Below are positions 2,262-61,861 of a stretch of DNA of 64,000 nucleotides, piece by piece. Made by a program: the position numbers and the translations under genes. Source of the stretch: a virus (lineage: Duplodnaviria; Heunggongvirae; Uroviricota; Caudoviricetes); the IMG/VR virus record IMGVR_UViG_2681813318_000003, one strand, 5' to 3'. Numbering within the stretch: position 1 is the stretch's first letter; each line of letters opens with the position of its first letter. The notes under the pieces were generated by a model, which saw only the letters and a program-made list of their open reading frames with translations, was not told where the DNA came from and did no database searches.

Positions 2262-3095
2262 TTACGCACGGCGAACAATCATACGGTTGTTGATGTAACT
2301 GACCAGCAAGCGCCAGGTACTACGAGCCACATGCACGTTTGCAGCTTTACCGGTACGGTACATGTTGGTTGTTTCACCGATGGACTCTGACAAAATGCCA
2401 TCCTCTCGTGCTGCGGCTACATCATTGCCATTTGCGATCTCACACGCTTCGTTGACAACGGCAAGCATCAACGCTTCTTTGAAGTAGTCAGGGAACTCTT
2501 CAAACTTCTCCTGCGTCATCTTTTCCCAATCGACTAAATCATGCCGGTACGCTCCATCTGCTCCCCACGGAATGTCATACACATTCAGCATATTTTGAGG
2601 GCGATCGTATCGGTCAAAGTCGATACGTAGAATTTTGCGGATTGAGAACGGTAAAGTTTTAATACGTCTGGTAGCCTCAATGAGACGCTTGCGCATTAAG
2701 CCTTCACCATCCGACAGCAAAGTGTCCCCATTCAGCATATCGATCGCCTGCATTTGAGCATCAGCGACAGTTGCAAACGACTGTTCTGGTATCGACAGTT
2801 CAAAAGTATTCAGCAGAACATACATTTGACGCTCTTCATGCGTCAGGCCCGATGCAACAGCCTTCACAATGACGTACCGCAGATCTCGCTCTTTCTCAGA
2901 GAGCTGGTTATATTCAGCCGACACGACAACCGGAATCGACATTTGACCGTTGGTAATTTCTAGCGGCTCGCCATCAACGAGAATAGCCCCGGTGCTGTCC
3001 TTTACTGTGTAGGTGGCAGATTCGATATCCAGCACGTTGAAGGCAAATGAAAGAGAAACAGCTTCACCGCTACGATACGAGTCGATCTGCGCCAT
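2262..3095 (-). CDS. Hypothetical virion protein (possible head-tail adaptor)
   Basis: 277-aa ORF within the structural operon, start coupled to the stop of the upstream gene. Confidence 0.3.
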   Translation of the reverse strand: MAQIDSYRSGEAVSLSFAFNVLDIESATYTVKDSTGAILVDGEPLEITNGQMSIPVVVSAEYNQLSEKERDLRYVIVKAVASGLTHEERQMYVLLNTFELSIPEQSFATVADAQMQAIDMLNGDTLLSDGEGLMRKRLIEATRRIKTLPFSIRKILRIDFDRYDRPQNMLNVYDIPWGADGAYRHDLVDWEKMTQEKFEEFPDYFKEALMLAVVNEACEIANGNDVAAAREDGILSESIGETTNMYRTGKAANVHVARSTWRLLVSYINNRMIVRRA

Positions 3096-3529
3096 TACTC
3101 ACCACCTTGTGCTTTCAGGATGCCGTCAATCATTTCGACAATTCCTTTCGCTTTGACACCAACCTGATTACCAATAACTCGTAGACCGGCAATACCTTCG
3201 TTGTCTGCAATTGACTCCAGCTCTTCTCGTGTGAAAGTCTGGATCTGTTTGGCCGGTTCATCTGGTGTCCCACGTTTCATTGGCACAATGTCAGGCGCTG
3301 CTGGCTCGGTAATCAGGTCTGCTGTCAATTCACCACGATCACTGTATGCGGCAGACGGAGAAACATTTTTGCCCTCTACTGTTGACGCTCGCATTGAAGC
3401 ACAAATCCTCTGCTGATCGATAAAAGGCAACTCCGCTACGGATACCCCGTTCTCGAACTGAACGCCACACAGCATTCCCGAATAACCGGAAAATTGCGGT
3501 TCTAATAAAACAATTTTTGCTGGTTTCAT
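3095..3529 (-). CDS. Hypothetical virion protein
   Basis: 144-aa ORF, ATG at 3529 with GAGAGAAAG upstream; position between decoration and head-tail genes. Confidence 0.3.
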   Translation of the reverse strand: MKPAKIVLLEPQFSGYSGMLCGVQFENGVSVAELPFIDQQRICASMRASTVEGKNVSPSAAYSDRGELTADLITEPAAPDIVPMKRGTPDEPAKQIQTFTREELESIADNEGIAGLRVIGNQVGVKAKGIVEMIDGILKAQGGE

Positions 3530-3573
3530 AACGCTTTCTCTCTACATGGGCGGCTTTCGCCGCCCAATATTGA

Positions 3574-4494
3574 TTATTCCTGTGCAGCAGTGACTTCTAC
3601 GGTCGCTGTCGCTTTGTGGCTACCATCTTGGGTAGTAACCTCGATTGTGGCAGTACCAGCCGCAACGCCAGTTACAACACCGGTTTCGCTATCAACCGTT
3701 GCAAACTCGGTATTTTTGGATTCCCAAGTAACGGTTTTATTTGTTGCTCCTGCCGGCTCGACATTTGCGGTCAGCTGAACAGTTTTGTTTGCCTCAACGG
3801 TTGTGCTATTTGGGTCGATTTCGACGCCGGTAACAGCCACAACAGGCGCAGTTACTTCCACCGTTGCAGTTGCCTTTTTGCTGCCATCTTGGGAAACGAT
3901 CTCAATCGTCGCAGTGCCAACTTCTACACCAGTAACGTTCCCGCTCTGGTCTACCGTTGCCTTATCTTCATTTTTTGAAGACCAGGTAACAGCCTTATTC
4001 GTCGCATTTGACGGCTGAACATTCGCTTTCAGACTGACTGATTTCCCTTTCTCAACAGAGGTTGAGTCTGGCGTTACCGTTACGGATTGAACGGCTACCG
4101 GATTTACGGTGACTTCCACTGACGCGGAAAGCTGGGTTTCCTGATCAGTTGCAGTAATTTTTACTTTGCCTGGTGCTACACCAGTTACTAATCCAGTGCC
4201 GTTAACGGCTGCAATTTGATCATTAGCTGACTTCCAAGTGAATGAACTGGCACTCTTACCCATACTAATACCTGCACTAAGTTGAACAGTTTTCCCAACC
4301 AAAACTGACGGTGAAGCCGGGGTTATGTTTACGGATTGGGAGAGGGGAACCGCCTGCAAACAAGCAGATAGCTGACTTTGTTGCCGCTCGGTTAAAGGTT
4401 CATCGGAGATAGAATTGGTAAATCCGGCGCGGCACATATGCCCCGTAAAATCCGAAAATGCCTCTTCCGTAATCTTCATCTTTTGTTCTGGCAT
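3574..4494 (-). CDS. Ig-like domain (three Big_2-type repeats) head decoration protein
   Basis: Three tandem about 80-aa repeats of the type VTVTP..SV..G..V.L.A.V.P..A.NK.VTW.S...ATV; ATG 4494 preceded by AGGAG; directly downstream of the capsid gene. Confidence 0.55.
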   Translation of the reverse strand: MPEQKMKITEEAFSDFTGHMCRAGFTNSISDEPLTERQQSQLSACLQAVPLSQSVNITPASPSVLVGKTVQLSAGISMGKSASSFTWKSANDQIAAVNGTGLVTGVAPGKVKITATDQETQLSASVEVTVNPVAVQSVTVTPDSTSVEKGKSVSLKANVQPSNATNKAVTWSSKNEDKATVDQSGNVTGVEVGTATIEIVSQDGSKKATATVEVTAPVVAVTGVEIDPNSTTVEANKTVQLTANVEPAGATNKTVTWESKNTEFATVDSETGVVTGVAAGTATIEVTTQDGSHKATATVEVTAAQE

Positions 4495-4510
4495 TTCTTG
4501 CTCCTACAAA

Positions 4511-4536
4511 AAGGGTGGGCGTATAGCCCACCCTTA
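4511..4536 (-). terminator. Rho-independent terminator or attenuator after the capsid gene
   Basis: GGGTGGGC..GCCCACCC hairpin followed by a T-run on the minus strand, between capsid and decoration genes. Confidence 0.5.
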
Positions 4537-4567
4537 AACATAGATAATTGCTTATCTACCACACTGA

Positions 4568-5443
4568 TTAAATTTTTACATTGGTCAGTGCAGCGATAGC
4601 CTTATCGTGCTTATTCGCCAGAGAGCAGTACCACTTCACACGGGTACGTACTGCGTCTTTGTTCTGTACAGTACCAATGTTTTCAACAACGATACCTGCG
4701 TTATCGCCGCCATACAGACCAGTAACGCCGTTCTCTTCTGACAGATGCAGGCAATAGATGCTTGCTTTGCCAGCATCGGTCGGGATGAAGTCGTTGATGA
4801 TGAACGGAACGCCGTTATGACACAGCATCGGACGACCAAAGTTCTCCATCATGATTTCAGACGGACCTACGTTTACTGTACGCAGCAGCGCACGATAAGC
4901 ACGCAGGTGCTCTGAACGCATCATGATGCAGTCAGCACCAAGATCTTTCACCGCATCGACCAGTTCGTCGAACATAGAGAAAGTCATAGATGCACCGGCG
5001 ATATCGATCTTCTGATCTGCGTGCATCAGGCGTGGAATGCCGTCAAACGCTTTGTTGTTGGAGCTGGAGTCACCCAAAATCAGGTTGCGGCGGAACGCAC
5101 GAGCCAGACCTTTAACTTTCTGACGAACCTGAATAGCCAACTGGTTATTGGTGTCGGCCATAGTGGTTGCCAGGAATTTATCAACGTCTACGTCACCAGC
5201 CAGAATACGCAGTTTCGCAACGCATTCTTCGAAGGTTGCTGCACCTTCCGGGATGGTGTCGTTAACGTCGATGAAGGTAGCTTCACTCAGCGTTTTTTCA
5301 CGGTTGTACAGATATGCCTTTGAAGTAATTTTCATAAAAGGCAGGATGGCAAACAGGTCATCGCGATCGATGATGGTTTCAATCACGCCCTGTTCAAGTT
5401 CGTTGTTAGACAGCTTTTCAGCTTCTTCACGCAGTAATGGCAT
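4568..5443 (-). CDS. Major capsid protein (HK97 fold)
   Basis: 291-aa ORF with AAAGGGA SD; follows portal and scaffold in canonical order; terminator downstream consistent with high expression. Confidence 0.65.
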   Translation of the reverse strand: MPLLREEAEKLSNNELEQGVIETIIDRDDLFAILPFMKITSKAYLYNREKTLSEATFIDVNDTIPEGAATFEECVAKLRILAGDVDVDKFLATTMADTNNQLAIQVRQKVKGLARAFRRNLILGDSSSNNKAFDGIPRLMHADQKIDIAGASMTFSMFDELVDAVKDLGADCIMMRSEHLRAYRALLRTVNVGPSEIMMENFGRPMLCHNGVPFIINDFIPTDAGKASIYCLHLSEENGVTGLYGGDNAGIVVENIGTVQNKDAVRTRVKWYCSLANKHDKAIAALTNVKI

Positions 5444-5468
5444 CTATCAATTCCCTTTGATTTAGATG

Positions 5469-6356
5469 TTACTTAAGTCCAATTTTCCCCAGACCGGAGG
5501 CCAACTTATCCATAGTCGACTTGTTCTTCGGTTGGGATATTGTGTAGGTCGATTTGGAATGTGAGCCTACACCCTGCTTGGCTTCGCTACGCATCAATGC
5601 GTCAGCTTCCGGATCTGCCCGCACAATGCGTTCAATCGCGGATTCAAACGGCAACGGCTTACCTTCACCGTCAACCAGAACAGCTCGTTCTTTATGACCT
5701 GCCGGTTTGTCATAACCCACTACGCTACCGTCTTCACCCACTTCAAAATGAGAACCGTAGATCACGCGGGCTTTTGCCGGAGTCATCAGAACTTTGTCAC
5801 GTAGGAAGAGAGAGTTACTGAAGGAAGCGCCCACGGTCATCTCGACTAATTGAGATTTCAGTGATGCGTTTTCACTTTCCAGTGCTGCATAACGTTCGTC
5901 ACGCTGTGCCAGCTCTGCCTGGTGTGCTTCGATCATCTGTTTTTTAACAGCATCGAACTCACCACGACGCTCCAGTTCAGCTTGCTCCGCCTCACGACGT
6001 GCGTTTTCTGCGGCCTGTTCAGCTTCTAAAAGCTGGCGAGCACGCGCCGGGTCGATATCACCGTACTGAGCAAGCTGATCGGCCAATGTGCGCTCTTTCT
6101 CTTTGCGCTTCATGTTCTCTTTCAGCAGTTCAGCACCAGCTTTCTTGGTTTTGCGAAGTTCGACCAGTAACTCTTCATGAGTCATGCCAGCGTATTCGTC
6201 ATCACCCTTCGGCTGCTCTTTTTGTTCACCCTGCTTGTCAGGATCTTGTGTACTCTGCTCATTATCAGCAGCTACACCGCCAGCGCCCCCACGCTCATGC
6301 GCTTCAGCAACATCCATCAGACCACGACGGGCCAAAAGCATTTGCCACAGTTTCAT
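5469..6356 (-). CDS. Scaffolding protein
   Basis: 295 aa, strongly charged E/A/Q/R-rich central coiled-coil-like region; located between portal and capsid genes. Confidence 0.5.
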   Translation of the reverse strand: MKLWQMLLARRGLMDVAEAHERGGAGGVAADNEQSTQDPDKQGEQKEQPKGDDEYAGMTHEELLVELRKTKKAGAELLKENMKRKEKERTLADQLAQYGDIDPARARQLLEAEQAAENARREAEQAELERRGEFDAVKKQMIEAHQAELAQRDERYAALESENASLKSQLVEMTVGASFSNSLFLRDKVLMTPAKARVIYGSHFEVGEDGSVVGYDKPAGHKERAVLVDGEGKPLPFESAIERIVRADPEADALMRSEAKQGVGSHSKSTYTISQPKNKSTMDKLASGLGKIGLK

Positions 6357-56836: not shown

Positions 56837-57049
56837 TTAGTGTATTTTCTTTAACAGACCCCAAAGTGTTCCGGCTTTTGTAGTCAGTTTTCCTGTTTCT
56901 GGATCGTACATACGCCATTCACGCCGCTGGTGGACGATATACCCATCTTCACGTTCCAGACGCTCAAGAATGCCAGGCTGCTTGAAACCCTTAGCACGCC
57001 AGTAGCCGCTTGTTTTCTCGATTTCCAGACCTGCCAGTGTTAATGCCAT
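56837..57049 (-). CDS. Hypothetical small protein
   Basis: 70-aa ORF, start overlapping the stop of the upstream gene. Confidence 0.35.
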   Translation of the reverse strand: MALTLAGLEIEKTSGYWRAKGFKQPGILERLEREDGYIVHQRREWRMYDPETGKLTTKAGTLWGLLKKIH

Positions 57050-57384
57050 TATCCAACCTCCTTGCAGTCATCGAAAAGGTAGCTTTGCTGAGAAGCGTGA
57101 ACGCCATAGAAGCCCTTGTATTTGTTGTATACGAAGTGGTCTTCTCCGACGCCGGTTAATTTGCCATTACGGTTTGTGAGATATGGGGATGACAATACTC
57201 GATCGTCACGCACTACATAGAACTGGTCGCCGCTGTCTACGACCATCGCGCCATATGGTGCTTTTATGACGTCGGTAAAAGCGCCATTCTTAATGTCGGC
57301 TACAGACATTTCACACTGATAAACAGTGGTGTCGGCCACAACGATCGAAGAAAGGAACAACAAAGCGAATGGGATGGCCTTCAT
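57049..57384 (-). CDS. Secreted or periplasmic protein
   Basis: 111 aa with signal peptide MKAIPFALLFLSSIVVA. Confidence 0.45.
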   Translation of the reverse strand: MKAIPFALLFLSSIVVADTTVYQCEMSVADIKNGAFTDVIKAPYGAMVVDSGDQFYVVRDDRVLSSPYLTNRNGKLTGVGEDHFVYNKYKGFYGVHASQQSYLFDDCKEVG

Positions 57385-57560
57385 GCTGCCACCTCTTTGA
57401 TTACATCAAATGCTGAATTAAATACGAGCACGATAGCCAAAGCGTTTATGACTACTTCGTTCACCGGGGAAAATACTTTACGAATGACACCAGTGAAAAT
57501 GCAGTCGATGACAAAAGCTATTGACACGATGAGTAACAAGTATTCAATAAAAATCTTCAT
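57381..57560 (-). CDS. Small membrane protein (below the ORF-track size cutoff)
   Basis: 59-aa ORF read manually (MKIFIEYLLLIVSIAFVIDCIFTGV...); its stop overlaps the next start as ATGA; two hydrophobic segments. Confidence 0.3.
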   Translation of the reverse strand: MKIFIEYLLLIVSIAFVIDCIFTGVIRKVFSPVNEVVINALAIVLVFNSAFDVIKEVAA

Positions 57561-57599
57561 GATAGGTAGATACTAACTTATATAAATTTTACTGTAAAC

Positions 57600-57875
57600 T
57601 CACTCAAAAGTGCTGATGCTTAAAATACGCTCAAGATGTGCGGCATCTTCATCACTGATTTGTTGAGTCTCTTCTACGTACCAACAGTTGCCGTTATGCC
57701 AACAAACACCATCATCATCAACCATCACTGAATCAGCGTCATGACCTGTATATTCAACGAGAATGTGCTGGATCAGCGCGTCAGTTTCTTCGTCGTTAAG
57801 GCCATCGGCTTTGACCATAAAAAGCGGAAACACGTCATAGACAGTGCTGGTAACGATTCGAACTAAAACTCTCAT
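57600..57875 (-). CDS. Hypothetical small acidic protein
   Basis: 91-aa ORF with start context AAAGGAAAAACACATG. Confidence 0.4.
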   Translation of the reverse strand: MRVLVRIVTSTVYDVFPLFMVKADGLNDEETDALIQHILVEYTGHDADSVMVDDDGVCWHNGNCWYVEETQQISDEDAAHLERILSISTFE

Positions 57876-57930
57876 GTGTTTTTCCTTTTGTGGTTAGTGT
57901 TTACTTATTTTGTTAGTTATGAATAGGCGA

Positions 57931-58356
57931 TCAATCTTCTTGTTTAGGGAAAAACTGTTCAATAACTCTGTCAACGGCTGTGTCTATATGGAGTAGATGC
58001 CACACAACCATATCTTTGCTTCCCATGCCTTGTGTGAATATCACGTCATACTTACGCCATGCGCAGTGGAACCAATATGCTGAGTCATCAATTGGTAAAT
58101 CCTCTCCCGCCTCTTTGAAGTATTTCAGCAGCATTGCCTGCTCTGCCGTTGGCGTTGGACCTATTTCCTGAGCGTACATACGGATGAATCGCTGCCAGTC
58201 TGTCTCGTCGGGGGTTGGATCTGGTGGGGTCATTTCTGCGATAGCGTTTCGTAGCTGATGCGCCCAATCAGGTTCAGGAAAGCCTTTTGCTACTTCATCA
58301 TCAATAACATCCAGAGCCACGTTTGCGGCATCGTAGAGTTTCTTAATAGCTGTCAT
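57931..58356 (-). CDS. Hypothetical protein
   Basis: 141-aa ORF; class A motif upstream. Confidence 0.4.
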   Translation of the reverse strand: MTAIKKLYDAANVALDVIDDEVAKGFPEPDWAHQLRNAIAEMTPPDPTPDETDWQRFIRMYAQEIGPTPTAEQAMLLKYFKEAGEDLPIDDSAYWFHCAWRKYDVIFTQGMGSKDMVVWHLLHIDTAVDRVIEQFFPKQED

Positions 58357-58404
58357 GTTTTCTTATCCTTTTAAACAAATTGTTTTCTTAATAAGATAAT
58401 TGCG

Positions 58405-58432
58405 ATAAAAAAGGCGTCCAACTGGACGCCTG
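58405..58432 (-). terminator. Rho-independent terminator (GGCGTCC hairpin family)
   Basis: AGGCGTCCAGTTGGACGCCT followed by TTTTTT on the minus strand; same stem family at 59545-59570 and 61877-61906. Confidence 0.65.
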
Positions 58433-58447
58433 AACTTTTTAGGGGAG

Positions 58448-59278
58448 TTATTTCACTGTAATGAAAGGAGTGTTAGCCCCTTGAGTCATGTACTGCGGTA
58501 ACTGGCCATTCCATTTATTGATGGCTTCCAGTTCCATAACGTTCGGGTTTTGACGCAGAGCTTCACCGCGCAGACGAATGGCGTCTGCTTCTGCTTGCGC
58601 ACGAGCACGGATAGCATCAGCTTCACCATTAGCCTGTTCACGTAGCATATTCGCCTCAGCTTTACGTTGTTCAACTTCCTGCTGACGTTGCAGAGTACGC
58701 TGGTTAGCCGTTACTTTGGCGTTAATAGATTCAATGACAGTTTTTGGGTAATCAGGCTTTCCAACCCATGACAGGCTCAGTACCTCAATACCAACCGGAG
58801 ACATCTCTTTCTGAATATCTTTCAGTGCGTTGTCCAGCAATTGTGCCTTACCACCGTCGATAAATGAGTCAGTGGTCATACGGCTGGCCAAACGGTTTAG
58901 AGAGTCGGCAATTTTCTGACGCAGATCTGATTCGGTGATATCGTCTACGCCTTTGCGATAGGTCTGGAACACCGTCGTTACCTTGTCACGATTAACCAGA
59001 TACGCAACGCCAATTTTGTGACCAATAGCAGTACCGTCACTCATCTGGAATGTGAACGGCTCGTCGTAGGTCTTCATTTGTTTGAAGGTCGGGAATACGT
59101 AAAGTTCGGTGTTAAGACCTGTCCATTGGCGACCAACGCCAACCACTTCACCAATCCCTTTGTCTTCACCTAATTTGTTTACTTTGATGCCAACGTATCC
59201 AGGCTCCACGCGATCGCAGCCAGTAAGACCCATTGTGCAAATAGCCGCCAGAGCAACTGCAAGTAAACCTTTCTTCAT
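58448..59278 (-). CDS. SPFH (band 7/prohibitin-like) domain lipoprotein
   Basis: Lipobox LTGC after a signal peptide, followed by an SPFH-like domain and an A/E/R/Q-rich coiled-coil C-terminus. Confidence 0.55.
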   Translation of the reverse strand: MKKGLLAVALAAICTMGLTGCDRVEPGYVGIKVNKLGEDKGIGEVVGVGRQWTGLNTELYVFPTFKQMKTYDEPFTFQMSDGTAIGHKIGVAYLVNRDKVTTVFQTYRKGVDDITESDLRQKIADSLNRLASRMTTDSFIDGGKAQLLDNALKDIQKEMSPVGIEVLSLSWVGKPDYPKTVIESINAKVTANQRTLQRQQEVEQRKAEANMLREQANGEADAIRARAQAEADAIRLRGEALRQNPNVMELEAINKWNGQLPQYMTQGANTPFITVK

Positions 59279-59281
59279 TAC

Positions 59282-59482
59282 TTATTTCCCCTTTGCTTTG
59301 ATTAATGAGTTGATAAACTTACGACCAGCAATAAGACCGATTACAGGAGCACCAAAACCAACGATAACTCCAAACATGACGGCTAAATCACTCTTGGTAG
59401 AAATCAGCGACGGAACCAGTAAACCGTAGATGAGAGCCACTGAAAGGCCTGTGGCTACTGCCAATAGATAGATTTTGATCAT
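59282..59482 (-). CDS. Small two-TM membrane protein upstream of the SPFH gene
   Basis: 66 aa, hydrophobic helices LLAVATGLSVALIYGLLV and VMFGVIVGFGAPVIGLIAG. Confidence 0.45.
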   Translation of the reverse strand: MIKIYLLAVATGLSVALIYGLLVPSLISTKSDLAVMFGVIVGFGAPVIGLIAGRKFINSLIKAKGK

Positions 59483-59544
59483 GTGTTTTCCTATGTGGTT
59501 GTTATGCGAAAATAATAAGTAAGTACTTATATATTTTCAAGAGA

Positions 59545-59570
59545 TAAAAAAGGCGTCCTGTGGACGCCTT
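59545..59570 (-). terminator. Rho-independent terminator (GGCGTCC hairpin family)
   Basis: AGGCGTCCACAGGACGCCT followed by TTTTTT on the minus strand, after the RecA-like gene. Confidence 0.65.
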
Positions 59571-59574
59571 GTGT

Positions 59575-60648
59575 TTACTCTTCTACTGACTCGGTGGGGT
59601 TGTCTTTTGCTCTTCGGTCGTCGATTGCCTGCAAAGCCGCAATGATTTCAGCCAGTGGCTTCTCCCGATACATCTCGACGATCTGCGATTTGGTGTATTT
59701 CTTGTCACCAATTTCAACTCGCCCGCTGGCGTTCTTTGGCAGGTATCCTTCTTCCAGCATGTACTCGACGAGCGATTCGATAACGTCGAGGCCACGAGTA
59801 GGATCGAAGTAGAATTTCCAGGTGCATTTGCCATACGGTGGTGCAACTTTGTTTTTGATGCATTCTGCGCCTACGTCCTGGCCGATCTTCTCTTTACCAT
59901 CCTTCATTACCGATGCACCAAGACGGATACGTACAGAAGCGTAGAACTTCGGTGAATCTCCACCTGGCGACGTAGTAGGGTCGCCAAACATTACACCGAT
60001 TTTTGTGCGAACCTGATTCAAGAAGATGATGCAGGCGTTGTATTTGCGTGCCCACAAAGCCAGAGTAGGGAAGTTCGCACTTGTCGCACGAGCCAGTGCC
60101 GTATTGTCGTTCATGTTTAGCTGATCTTTGTCTTTGGCAGTGCCTTCAGCCATCTTTTCGAACTTCTCGGCTTTGGTGTTCGGAACCATAGACGCAAGTG
60201 AGTCAGCCACGATACAGATAGGTGCTGATTCAGGGATAAGCTCTTCATCACGTACCAATTTAAGTATTGTGCCGATCAACTCTACAGAGTCTTCGAAGGT
60301 GTCAGGCTGCTTGTATACCCACTGACCGTCATCCTCATCTGCGTTCAGGCCATTGGCTACAGCCAGGCCAACGTCAAAACTGTTTTCATGATCGAGGAAT
60401 ACCGCCAGACCATCTTGTTTTTGAGCGGAGATCATCGCTGCTGTCGCAAGGAACGTTTTCCCTGCACTTGGAGGACCGAATACTTCGACGATACGACCAC
60501 ATGGGAAGCCGCCATCGTAACGACCGGAAATAGCTTTGTTTAACGGTGGAAAGCCTGTATCAATCCAATGAGTTACTTTCTGAATTTCGTCGTTGCTACC
60601 GATTTTCTTTTTCAGAGCAAGTGCCAGTGCGGATTTTCCTTTTGCCAT
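59575..60648 (-). CDS. RecA/UvsX-like recombinase
   Basis: Walker A GPPSAGKT in a RecA-type core, 357 aa, SD AAGGAG. Confidence 0.7.
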   Translation of the reverse strand: MAKGKSALALALKKKIGSNDEIQKVTHWIDTGFPPLNKAISGRYDGGFPCGRIVEVFGPPSAGKTFLATAAMISAQKQDGLAVFLDHENSFDVGLAVANGLNADEDDGQWVYKQPDTFEDSVELIGTILKLVRDEELIPESAPICIVADSLASMVPNTKAEKFEKMAEGTAKDKDQLNMNDNTALARATSANFPTLALWARKYNACIIFLNQVRTKIGVMFGDPTTSPGGDSPKFYASVRIRLGASVMKDGKEKIGQDVGAECIKNKVAPPYGKCTWKFYFDPTRGLDVIESLVEYMLEEGYLPKNASGRVEIGDKKYTKSQIVEMYREKPLAEIIAALQAIDDRRAKDNPTESVEE

Positions 60649-60650
60649 GA

Positions 60651-60923
60651 TCAGGCTCCTTTTGTTTCGTTGATTCGTTTTAAAGCGGCGGATTCGTCGA
60701 ATACAATCGCATCGTGATTAAGGAGTCTGGATACACGAGCGAGGATTTTTACGACCTGCTCGCTGACTAATCCAAACTCGCGATCTGTCGCTTTCATTCC
60801 GGCAGCGCCCAGAATTGACGGCAGTGCGATGACAGCGTACTCACCGTGATAAAAGACAATCTCTTTTGCCAGTTGGGTGGGGGTGGTTGTAGCGCCATTA
60901 ATAATCGATTTAAGCATTAGCAA
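60651..60923 (-). CDS. Hypothetical small protein
   Basis: 90-aa ORF between the flap endonuclease and recombinase genes. Confidence 0.35.
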   Translation of the reverse strand: MLMLKSIINGATTTPTQLAKEIVFYHGEYAVIALPSILGAAGMKATDREFGLVSEQVVKILARVSRLLNHDAIVFDESAALKRINETKGA

Positions 60924-61861
60924 TACCTTTCGAATGGAAGAACAAACACTTCAAGGTCTTCAAGGAACGAACGGAAATTCAGCTCGTAGCACAGTTGCTC
61001 GAATGCTTTCACGTCACGATTGCCTTTGATTGTTTCGATTTCGGTAGGCGGAAACTTCGTCTCAATCAGGTTCATTAGCGTGATGTTTCTCTTGAACGCT
61101 TCGAGCATTCGACAGCCTGTTTTCTCGTTGAAGGCATTCTTCGCTAGTTTGTTGAAGGCGGTCTTATGGCGTCCTTTGTCAACCACGATTGAGCCGTCGT
61201 TGATGCCGCGTACCATCGTTGCGACACTTCCCCATTCATGCAGCAGCTCTTTCGCACCGCCAGCACCAATGCCACCAACACCGCTAATGTTGTCCGATTT
61301 ATCGCCTTGTAATGCTTTTGCTTCCAAAAATGCGCGAGGAGTAGCGAATCCTGTCAGCTCCGCAAATTGCTCAAAATTAACCTGCTTGTTTTTGGCGTCT
61401 TCGCGCAGGCTTACCCAGCTTACGTTTTCGCGAACTAACTGAAGCCAGTCGCTATCGCCTGTTAACAGATAGATGTGTTCAACGGTTGGCTGCGCTGCCA
61501 TGCGGGATACCAGCAGCCCGGCCAGATCATCCGCTTCTGCATCTTTTGCAATGAGTTGGGTAACTCCAAGCGCGGTCATCATTTTGAGGATGTATGGCTT
61601 CTGGATAGCAAAGCCTTCCTTCATCTTTTTCATATCAGGATCGTCGTCGCGATTTGCTTTGTAGTCCGGGTAAAAGTCGCGACGCTTGTCACTAAATCCA
61701 TCCCAAAGAATCATAGGTCGGGCATGGAGGATGGAGGCATAACGACGGACGTTCTTAACAAAGCCGAAAGCAGCCTGTACTTCCATTTCGCCGTTGTGCA
61801 ATTTGTCAGATTGTTGGTGGTAATAACCCAGGCTATTGCCATCTACGAAGAGATAATTCAC
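60917..61861 (-). CDS. 5'-3' exonuclease / flap endonuclease (FEN family)
   Basis: N-terminal LFVDGNSLGYY PIN-like motif and H3TH motif GDKSDNISGVGGIGAGGAKELL; start taken at GTG 61861 after SD GGAAGGA. Confidence 0.75.
   Translation of the reverse strand: MNYLFVDGNSLGYYHQQSDKLHNGEMEVQAAFGFVKNVRRYASILHARPMILWDGFSDKRRDFYPDYKANRDDDPDMKKMKEGFAIQKPYILKMMTALGVTQLIAKDAEADDLAGLLVSRMAAQPTVEHIYLLTGDSDWLQLVRENVSWVSLREDAKNKQVNFEQFAELTGFATPRAFLEAKALQGDKSDNISGVGGIGAGGAKELLHEWGSVATMVRGINDGSIVVDKGRHKTAFNKLAKNAFNEKTGCRMLEAFKRNITLMNLIETKFPPTEIETIKGNRDVKAFEQLCYELNFRSFLEDLEVFVLPFERYC

Follow-up and report, generated by a model that had tools for sequence, protein, structure and literature searches.

What does a phage gain from a membrane-organising protein accompanied by a small membrane partner? 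This question is raised by a pair of minus-strand genes at positions 58448–59482 of the virus record IMGVR_UViG_2681813318_000003, the 64,000-nucleotide stretch of DNA that was analysed here and that we call the window. SPFH proteins are universal membrane organisers whose cage structures have been solved recently, and to our knowledge the bacterial members with known partners use NfeD or FtsH. A first-pass annotation, made from the sequence alone, had read the pair as a phage-encoded SPFH (band-7) lipoprotein and a small membrane protein, forming a separate transcription unit, and had suggested exclusion or membrane remodelling as its role. The answer that we tentatively favour, at a little under an even chance, is that the two proteins constitute a self-contained, periplasm-facing envelope module that would keep the host inner membrane organised after derepression.

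The window shares 99.3% identity with Escherichia phage CMS-2020a, 95% with Cyrano and 79% with Salmonella phage SSU5, and so represents an SSU5-like phage-plasmid. Both open reading frames (ORFs) of the pair lie where the first-pass annotation had placed them: the list of ORFs contains one of 66 amino acids (aa) with two transmembrane (TM) segments at 59282..59482 on the minus strand, which we refer to as the hairpin gene, and one of 276 aa, the SPFH gene, at 58448..59278 on the same strand. The TAA stop codon of the former is separated by 3 nt (GTA) from the ATG of the latter, and a Shine-Dalgarno-like purine run precedes each. The genes are real and under purifying selection, because the ratio of nonsynonymous to synonymous substitution rates (dN/dS) relative to SSU5-like phages was ~0.03 for the SPFH gene and 0.11–0.34 for the hairpin gene. 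A test for diversifying selection on the fast-evolving hairpin gene was negative at these dN/dS values. The same two genes are annotated as CYRAN_56/57 in Cyrano, SSU5_061/062 in SSU5 and gp11/gp12 in P88, and the SPFH protein is 94–100% identical to those of SSU5-like phages, 100% identical to that of Cyrano and 77% identical to that of P88.

The SPFH protein is predicted to face the periplasm on a lipid anchor

The reading of the 276-aa product as an SPFH/band-7 lipoprotein was borne out by a domain search, in which residues 23–209 matched the Pfam family Band_7 (PF01145; E = 2.6e-30, 106.2 bits, cut-off 23.6), and by a match to PHROG 200, 'lipoprotein' (3e-108). Its N-terminus, MKKGLLAVALAAICTMGLTG-C21-DRVEPG, reads as a lipoprotein signal peptide composed of a basic MKK, then GLLAVALAAICTMG, then LTG-C21; the lipobox LTGC satisfies the pattern [LVI][ASTVI][GAS]C and is followed by Asp at position +2. 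Clustered at 50% identity, the subfamily comprised 2,816 representatives with E<=1e-3 and 195 with E<=1e-30, and most of its members are ~280 aa long with an N-terminal lipobox. Among 120 close homologues, 100 carried the lipobox, as did 103 of 150 cluster representatives and 30 of 31 profile hits; the Cys-Asp-Arg sequence (Cys21-Asp22-Arg23 in the window) was present in 95 of the 100 close enterobacterial homologues with a detected lipobox. Asp at +2 is an enterobacterial inner-membrane retention signal, and we infer that the protein is lipidated at Cys21 and retained at the inner membrane. Because of the signal peptide and lipobox, the SPFH domain is expected to lie outside the cytoplasm. 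The periplasmic face of the inner membrane is its probable site, since in some distant relatives an uncleaved N-terminal TM segment replaces the lipobox and since fused forms, described below, tie the protein to the hairpin.

An AlphaFold2 monomer model built from a 37-sequence alignment (mean predicted local distance difference test score, 80.9) had an SPFH alpha/beta domain at about residues 21–176, with strands at 21–95 and 164–176 and helices at 97–159, followed by a 65-residue long helix (179–243), a short helix (245–254) and a flexible tail. The C-terminal part also carries a conserved motif, W256-x-G-x-x-P. A Foldseek search of the PDB with this model returned full-length matches at a probability of 1.00 to HflK, PHB, erlin, stomatin, flotillin and QmcA protomers, in which HflK ranked first (7vhq_E, E = 2.4e-14), prohibitin, erlin and HflK/C–FtsH entries came next, and stomatin, flotillin and QmcA followed. 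As judged from the model, the three best fold matches are exactly the N-anchored SPFH proteins with an extracytoplasmic domain. Sequence and profile searches of the PDB gave remote, partial matches only (best profile E = 2.2e-7, partial).

Direct assignment of the protein to HflK or HflC was rejected with the NCBIfam models TIGR01933 (18.7 bits against a cut-off of 159.4) and TIGR01932 (30.2 bits against 134.4), respectively. An HflK/C-type tandem was likewise rejected: the locus has one SPFH gene with a cleavable lipoprotein signal, and the gene upstream lacks an SPFH domain. On sequence grounds the window protein belongs to a distinct SPFH subfamily. Members are often mislabelled 'serine protease' or 'transposase' in databases (e.g. 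P0023, P0099, P0318), although they contain no such domain.

The partner is a predicted two-helix hairpin without an NfeD domain

The two TM segments attributed to the small protein could be read from its sequence as two hydrophobic stretches joined by a 9-residue turn, PSLISTKSD, and followed by a basic tail, RKFINSLIKAKGK. By the positive-inside rule, this arrangement implies a predicted N-in/C-in hairpin with both ends in the cytoplasm and the short turn in the periplasm. In the alignment, conservation was centred on this turn (motif P-x-L-I-S-x-x-S/D; LLVPSLISTKSD) and not on a TM glycine pattern. The protein matched PHROG 1130, 'membrane protein' (2e-25), and no Pfam family at E<=0.01. 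No NfeD domain (PF01957) was found in six diverse partner proteins at E<=10, where only sub-threshold noise appeared, and NfeD was rejected as the identity of the partner on the Pfam scans of the window protein and these six. The first-pass view of an SPFH protein with a small membrane partner holds as far as the pairing is concerned; the classical SPFH partner does not apply, since the hairpin has neither an NfeD domain nor a Pfam family.

The hairpin and SPFH genes are paired across bacterial phyla

We collected bacterial loci with an 8-sequence alignment as the query, keeping one genome per species, which gave 73 loci from Enterobacterales, Xenorhabdus, Morganella, Sutterella, Leptospira, Sphingomonas, cyanobacteria, Bacteroidales, Saprospirales, Dependentiae and others. 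A hairpin profile made from 22 hairpin sequences matched the directly upstream, same-strand ORF in 45 loci at the first pass and, after one iteration, in 50 of the 73 at E<0.01, with 4 more matched weakly. Away from the SPFH-adjacent position, the profile gave one weak match among 12,081 ORFs. Most of the other loci had an unscored two-TM ORF upstream of the SPFH gene or an in-frame fusion, and the hairpin was clearly absent from a few (e.g. L099, L134, L136, L139, L149–151, L155). When the neighbouring proteins of the 73 loci were clustered, no conserved neighbour other than the hairpin ORF emerged, so nothing pointed to a further component or to a protease linked to the pair.

In-frame fusions of the two TM helices, lipobox and SPFH domain were counted from the position of the lipobox in 13 of the 150 best cluster representatives (~9%), with a few more recognised by eye, and in 6 of the 73 genome loci (L109, L113, L116, L118, L145, L152). 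The fused N-terminal extension aligns with the 66-aa protein of the window around a P-x-[LM]-[ILV]-S-x-x-[ST/D] turn, and in one P1-type copy (P0021) a natural fusion arose in the overlap of the two genes. The conserved adjacency across phyla, together with these natural fusions, argues that the two proteins are functionally paired, as the first-pass annotation had supposed; judged from these sequences, the pairing is meaningful and not a product of chance. Fused forms keep the lipobox behind the two TM helices (P0157, P0167, P0176, P0178, P0198, P0201 and others; L109, L116, L145, L152). A lipobox at such an internal position would be unusual, and signal peptidase II may split the fused precursor into hairpin peptide and lipoprotein.

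In Cyrano, the SPFH gene is identical to that of the window at the nucleotide level, whereas the hairpin genes have diverged at 43% of synonymous sites, which places a recombination breakpoint between the two genes. The contrast reflects recombination rather than positive selection, and the recombined pair suggests that different hairpin alleles work with one SPFH allele. The pair is also found disrupted or incompletely annotated. In chromosomal prophage copies of Shigella flexneri and E. coli (L088, L089; ~4233–5000), a ~770-bp IS1-like insertion splits the hairpin from the SPFH gene, and the hairpin ORF is left unannotated in several records, including pAVS0578-B (L159, 5073–5321; PGAP annotation) and phiP27 (L167, 2756–3004).

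Unrelated phages and bacterial chromosomes carry the pair

A protein search of phage records found the SPFH family in 377 of 50,697, temperate and virulent. The SSU5-type allele was present in 195 of 5,426 complete E. coli genomes, O104:H4 included, always on plasmids of ~106–111 kb. At least four unrelated temperate E. coli lineages carry the pair, namely SSU5-like, P1-like, P2-like and Stx/phiP27-like phages. In P1-like phage-plasmids it lies between a tRNA cluster and tRNA-Ile/ban, a locus occupied alternatively by TerB-family TciA and DUF3927 TciB (L159 pAVS0578-B, 5073–6129, versus L161 p1-HYM1, 3085–3674); TciA/B-like genes of Cyrano are found at a different place (CYRAN_85/86). The P2-like phage P88 has the pair within its early operon, and in the Stx phage phiP27 it adjoins int/xis, with the hairpin directly upstream of the SPFH gene.

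Strictly virulent carriers include N4-like (Schitoviridae), rV5-like (Vequintavirinae) and FelixO1-like (Ounavirinae) phages and LUZ24-like Pseudomonas podoviruses, and phiCbK-like Caulobacter, jumbo Salmonella, crAss-like and Lak phages were also listed in this group. A hairpin search of selected phages placed the hairpin directly upstream of the SPFH gene in N4-like, one gene upstream in rV5-like and two genes upstream in LUZ24-like phages; it gave a weak match only (E = 0.0017), one gene upstream, in a FelixO1-like phage and detected none in CcrSwift. In the phages checked, the pair lay among early or middle DNA-metabolism genes and never in structural or lysis modules. A repeat search of viral contigs with the 8-sequence alignment recovered close relatives only and added no diversity.

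The pair also sits in housekeeping chromosomal settings: in Sphingomonas it is flanked by a RecF-like gene and gyrB, in Leptospira it adjoins sdhCAB, and in Dyella it lies between BlaI-type regulator and hemerythrin genes in a non-phage context. The assumption that the pair is specific to phages therefore gave way to a cellular one, and we read it from these sequence contexts as an ancient, self-sufficient cellular module that has probably been captured many times by unrelated phages.

A conserved promoter with an embedded palindrome precedes the pair

The regulatory elements of the pair sit just beyond the 58448–59482 interval. A sigma-70-type promoter, TTGAAA-17-TATTAT, lies at 59540..59512 on the minus strand (-35 at 59540–59535, -10 at 59517–59512, 17-nt spacer); it has 10 of 12 consensus matches and is the best within 57000–61000. 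Its spacer is filled by a 20-bp quasi-palindrome at 59515..59534 (consensus ATAgGTAAGT.ACTTACcTAT), which overlaps the first bases of the -10 element, is a presumed operator and must be what the first-pass annotation called a class B site. An intrinsic terminator at 58431..58412 (minus strand; 8-bp stem with 6 GC, 4-nt loop, T-run) closes the two-gene unit. Another, at 59570..59550 (minus strand; 9-bp stem with 6 GC, 3-nt loop, T-run), ends the recA-like unit upstream and insulates the pair; its hairpin is kept in SSU5-like relatives, with changes mostly in the loop. With both the site and the terminator located, and the site conserved in relatives, the proposal of a separate transcription unit was sustained. 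Across 14 distinct SSU5-like upstream regions, the -35 element, palindrome and -10 element are almost invariant, while the adjacent genes of these relatives are nearly saturated at synonymous sites (proportion of synonymous differences, ~0.65–0.75), so the promoter and operator are under selection.

Searching the window for the palindrome ATAAGTAAGTACTTACTTAT with <=4 mismatches gave 10 sites, compared with 0 in 30 shuffled sequences; they start at 965, 6456, 13254, 33069, 37123, 39338, 48890, 57562, 59515 and 63035. LexA was rejected as the binder, as the site is unlike CTGT-N8-ACAG. Class B sites stand at or next to the promoters of many units, among them those of the major tail, scaffold/capsid, UvsW/ParB, RNR and SSB genes. 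The dispersed set resembles the scattered C1 operators of P1 and looks like the putative operator set of a phage regulator.

The pair is flanked by a recA-like gene upstream and a DUF7238 gene downstream. The former (59575–60648, minus strand) is an intein-free allele; the Cyrano homologue (L001, 5677–8016, minus strand) is 779 aa long with a 422-aa insertion right after the P-loop (GPPSAGK|C...), and the recA flanks of the insertion are 86–97% identical between the window and Cyrano. The DUF7238 gene (57931–58356, minus strand; E = 5e-38) lies beyond the terminator of the pair, and one database protein (P0018) is an SPFH–DUF7238 chimera, apparently derived from a deletion. A second class B unit, 2 kb downstream at 56837–57560 (minus strand), encodes a 59-aa two-TM protein, a 111-aa signal-peptide protein and a 70-aa Cra-like protein, none of which matched a Pfam family.

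Transcripts of the Cyrano pair are at background in carrier cells and rise in macrophages

The promoter and operator of Cyrano are nearly the same as those of the window, and transcriptome data are available for Cyrano in E. coli LF82, an adherent-invasive strain (PMC9928086, Table 1 and S1 Table; log2 values for two replicates per condition). In LB overnight cultures, CYRAN_56 (hairpin) was at the detection floor (2.32/2.32) and CYRAN_57 (SPFH) at the local background (4.3/3.0); after 6 h in macrophages, they had reached 7.61/7.70 and 7.25/7.42, respectively (PMC9928086). The flanking genes CYRAN_55 (recA; LB, 3.56/3.12) and CYRAN_58 (LB, 2.69/2.32) were both at ~4.1 in macrophages at 6 h (PMC9928086). 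As CYRAN_56/57 rose while these flanks stayed at ~4.1, the promoter of the pair is active and independent of its neighbours.

Normalised counts in the carrier state were 5.0 for CYRAN_56 and 13.9 for CYRAN_57, the median being 9.8 and the cut-off 49, and neither gene is among the 13 'morons' listed for Cyrano (PMC9928086). A moron, that is, a gene expressed autonomously in the lysogen, was accordingly rejected as a description of the pair, because its expression is not well above the prophage background in this state. When the class B sites were mapped onto Cyrano, the units downstream of four of them (CYRAN_60–62, 56–57, 12–13 and 4–5) were strongly up (log2 ~+2.6 to +6.3), and the Ead–Ea22, ParB, CYRAN_83 and UvsW units rose modestly (~+1.8 to +2.9). 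CYRAN_60–62, the homologues of the 56837–57560 unit, are among the most macrophage-induced genes, going from log2 2.3–3.8 to 8.3–9.0 (PMC9928086). Together, these values suggest that the class B units are a co-regulated promoter class, the mapping being a comparison and not a formal test.

Discussion

We propose that the 66-aa protein inserts into the inner membrane to form a helical hairpin whose two ends are cytoplasmic and whose turn is periplasmic, and that the 276-aa protein would be exported, lipidated at Cys21 and held on the outer face of the inner membrane, where its retention is most likely because of the Asp at +2. By analogy with HflK/C, prohibitin and erlin, the lipoprotein may assemble with itself into a ring or cage that encloses part of the inner membrane; every structurally characterised full-length SPFH protein known to us oligomerises. 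The hairpin would serve as the integral-membrane anchor of this ring or as a client enclosed by it, with its conserved periplasmic turn as the obvious candidate contact point. In the SSU5-like phage-plasmid, the insulated unit, with its sigma-70 promoter and embedded operator, would be switched on together with part of the other units that bear the operator. Once derepressed, during early lytic development or envelope stress, it might keep the inner membrane organised, intact and energised during phage replication.

Several known systems resemble parts of this arrangement. HflK/HflC of E. coli, which form a cage around FtsH (PDB 7vhp/7wi3/9cz2), share the periplasmic SPFH domain, the N-terminal inner-membrane anchor and the order of SPFH domain, long helix and C-terminal segment, and are the best fold match; the window, however, has one SPFH gene, a lipid anchor and a 2-TM partner of its own, and its protein falls below both NCBIfam cut-offs. 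Prohibitins (PHB1/2) and erlins (erlin1/2) have the same overall architecture, an N-anchored protomer facing the lumen or intermembrane space, but their sequence similarity is remote and partial (E 2e-4 to 8e-3). A survey by Hinderhofer et al. (2009, PMC2636767) defined SPFH4 'p-prohibitins', predicted to face the periplasm without an NfeD partner, of which no bacterial member had then been studied, and also lists the small unstudied families SPFH6–12 (PMC2636767). The window protein resembles SPFH4 by description, being predicted to face the periplasm and lacking NfeD, and is a candidate member of SPFH4 or of one of the families SPFH6–12. For prohibitins, erlins and SPFH4 alike, neither a 2-TM partner nor a lipoprotein anchor has been described, in contrast to the window.

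A small membrane protein and an SPFH protein in a two-gene operon are also found in QmcA–YbbJ and in stomatin- and flotillin-NfeD operons (PDB 8z5g), where the partner sits within or beneath the SPFH cage. There, however, the SPFH domain is cytoplasmic, whereas that of the window is predicted to be periplasmic, and the partner in the window is encoded upstream and belongs to neither NfeD nor any Pfam family. FliL is a single-TM protein that forms a periplasmic SPFH-like ring around the flagellar stator units; such a ring around a small integral-membrane complex provides a working analogy for the hairpin as a client, although the window has no flagellar context and no FliL match came up in the sequence or fold searches.

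The genes themselves were already known at the level of annotation (PHROG 200/1130; SSU5_062/061; P88 gp12/gp11; CYRAN_57/56; 'SPFH domain-containing protein'), and the SPFH gene is noted in several genome papers. Existing labels run from 'lipoprotein' and 'stomatin-like' to 'serine protease' and 'transposase', and do not note the pairing, the fusions or the cellular origin. In the literature we found no description of the non-NfeD hairpin partner, its near-universal adjacency, the lipobox-keeping fusions, the cellular origin or the regulatory behaviour.

Among other explanations, exclusion or defence is in our estimate unlikely, if credible: the pair would be made early after infection or induction and, much like T4 Imm/Sp or HK97 gp15, block the entry of other phages' genomes at the inner membrane, for example by caging or occluding an entry factor of that membrane. 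The T4 imm/sp and T5 llp genes are known exclusion genes of the lytic cycle, and the early-region place of the pair in virulent phages matches the timing of such genes. A cargo-like nature is also consistent with its own promoter and terminator, its independent acquisition by at least four unrelated temperate E. coli lineages and its alternation with TerB-family TciA/TciB cargo at the variable P1-like locus. On the other hand, neither protein matched any PADLOC-DB v2 family at E<=1 (0 families), and the pair is not expressed by Cyrano carrier cells in LB, which speaks against constitutive exclusion by a prophage; these two results weaken, without refuting, the exclusion role suggested by the first-pass annotation. 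The chromosomal pair in non-phage housekeeping settings points instead to a generic membrane function, and the genes, which are under strong purifying selection, lack the signature of diversifying selection that arms-race genes often show. A periplasmic SPFH ring might alternatively capture FtsH or another inner-membrane protease and so shift the turnover of membrane and regulatory proteins of phage or host, the lysis–lysogeny decision or lytic development, a role proposed by phage genome authors (PMC10269572, PMC8540360). The fold ranking, with HflK (7vhq_E) at the top and FtsH–HflK/C entries next, the weak sequence matches to HflC and HflK, and the HflK/C-like topology with a periplasmic SPFH domain, as read from the lipobox, all point this way. 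We nevertheless consider it decidedly improbable, as the HflK and HflC family models were failed by >100 bits, a single SPFH gene carries a lipid anchor in place of the N-terminal TM helix, the dedicated 2-TM partner, fused in some lineages, suggests the partner rather than FtsH as the client, and strictly virulent carriers have no lysogeny decision to influence.

We give only a small chance to lysogenic conversion, in which the lipoprotein, produced within host cells, would reach the surface or outer-membrane vesicles and affect the animal host as a TLR2 agonist or by altering the envelope. Its precedent is PM0222 of Pasteurella multocida, an HflK/C-like SPFH protein of a prophage island that is reported to be a virulence factor, to be released in outer-membrane vesicles and to signal through TLR1/2 (PMC9872710). 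The ~10- to 40-fold rise of CYRAN_56/57 in macrophages at 6 h and the plasmid-borne SSU5-type allele in those 195 E. coli genomes, O104:H4 included, fit such a role. PM0222 may, however, lie outside this SPFH subfamily, the conserved Asp at +2 predicts inner-membrane retention in enterobacteria, and the spread among virulent phages and environmental non-pathogens means that a host-directed role is not the general function. Next to no chance is left for control of lysis timing, with the 66-aa hairpin as a class II holin- or pinholin-like protein and the SPFH ring restraining or organising its oligomerisation. Class II holins of the S21 type are small N-in/C-in proteins with two TM segments, which the hairpin recalls in size, topology and basic C-terminal tail. 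No endolysin gene, however, adjoins the pair, whose neighbours are the recA-like and DUF7238 genes; the holin/endolysin/spanin cassette of Cyrano is far off (CYRAN_22–25); the pair is conserved in housekeeping chromosomal contexts; and what is conserved in the hairpin is the periplasmic turn rather than a TM glycine pattern.

A membrane-organising role is favoured by the occurrence of the pair in housekeeping contexts, its carriage by virulent and temperate phages, the purifying selection and the carrier-state silence. The membrane remodelling or scaffolding suggested by the first-pass annotation is likewise consistent with the fold evidence and continues to rest on interpretation. Several points weigh against this role. 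We are fairly confident of the anatomy and of oligomerisation, whereas formation of a ring or cage and its contact with the hairpin would follow from analogy only, and the membrane-organising or stabilising physiology is much less certain. The +2 residue in most distant homologues is Ser or Thr, so an outer-membrane location is possible in other hosts, and Arg at +3 may weaken retention by Asp at +2 (Lol avoidance). An early-expressed envelope lipoprotein also fits a lytic-cycle exclusion factor. The SSB, RNR and methyltransferase class B units rose by only log2 +1.4 to +1.6 in macrophages, little above unlinked genes, and, apart from the PM0222 study, the literature on phage SPFH proteins yielded annotation-level remarks only and no tested function for any member of the subfamily; three genome papers call the role of SPFH proteins in phages unclear (PMC13239085, PMC8540360, PMC10269572). 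Finally, the macrophage rise could stem from a small induced subpopulation rather than from a stress response. Under both readings, the pair stays unexpressed in quiet carrier cells and is switched on once derepression or stress sets in, a pattern that agrees with its place in the early operon of P2-like phages and among the early or middle genes of virulent phages.

A bolder version of the membrane-organising proposal is rather improbable. It would make the hairpin a phylum-spanning, non-NfeD partner family, the periplasmic counterpart of NfeD, with fused precursors cut by LspA and a lipid-anchored cage enclosing a hairpin oligomer. At least ten unrelated phage groups would then carry the pair to keep the membrane sealed and energised, for example against premature depolarisation or abortive-infection effectors that attack the membrane.

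The pair would represent a third SPFH arrangement, lipid-anchored, periplasm-facing and provided with a dedicated two-helix partner, and thus different in anchor, orientation and partner. It is common, occurring in phage records, on SSU5-type plasmids of E. coli and in P1-like, P2-like and Stx-type prophages, where labels such as 'transposase' mislead. Its induction in macrophages in adherent-invasive E. coli indicates a possible link to host-associated stress. As a small, insulated pair that can readily be deleted or expressed, it may offer a tractable route to the function of a periplasmic SPFH cage and to its benefit for phages.

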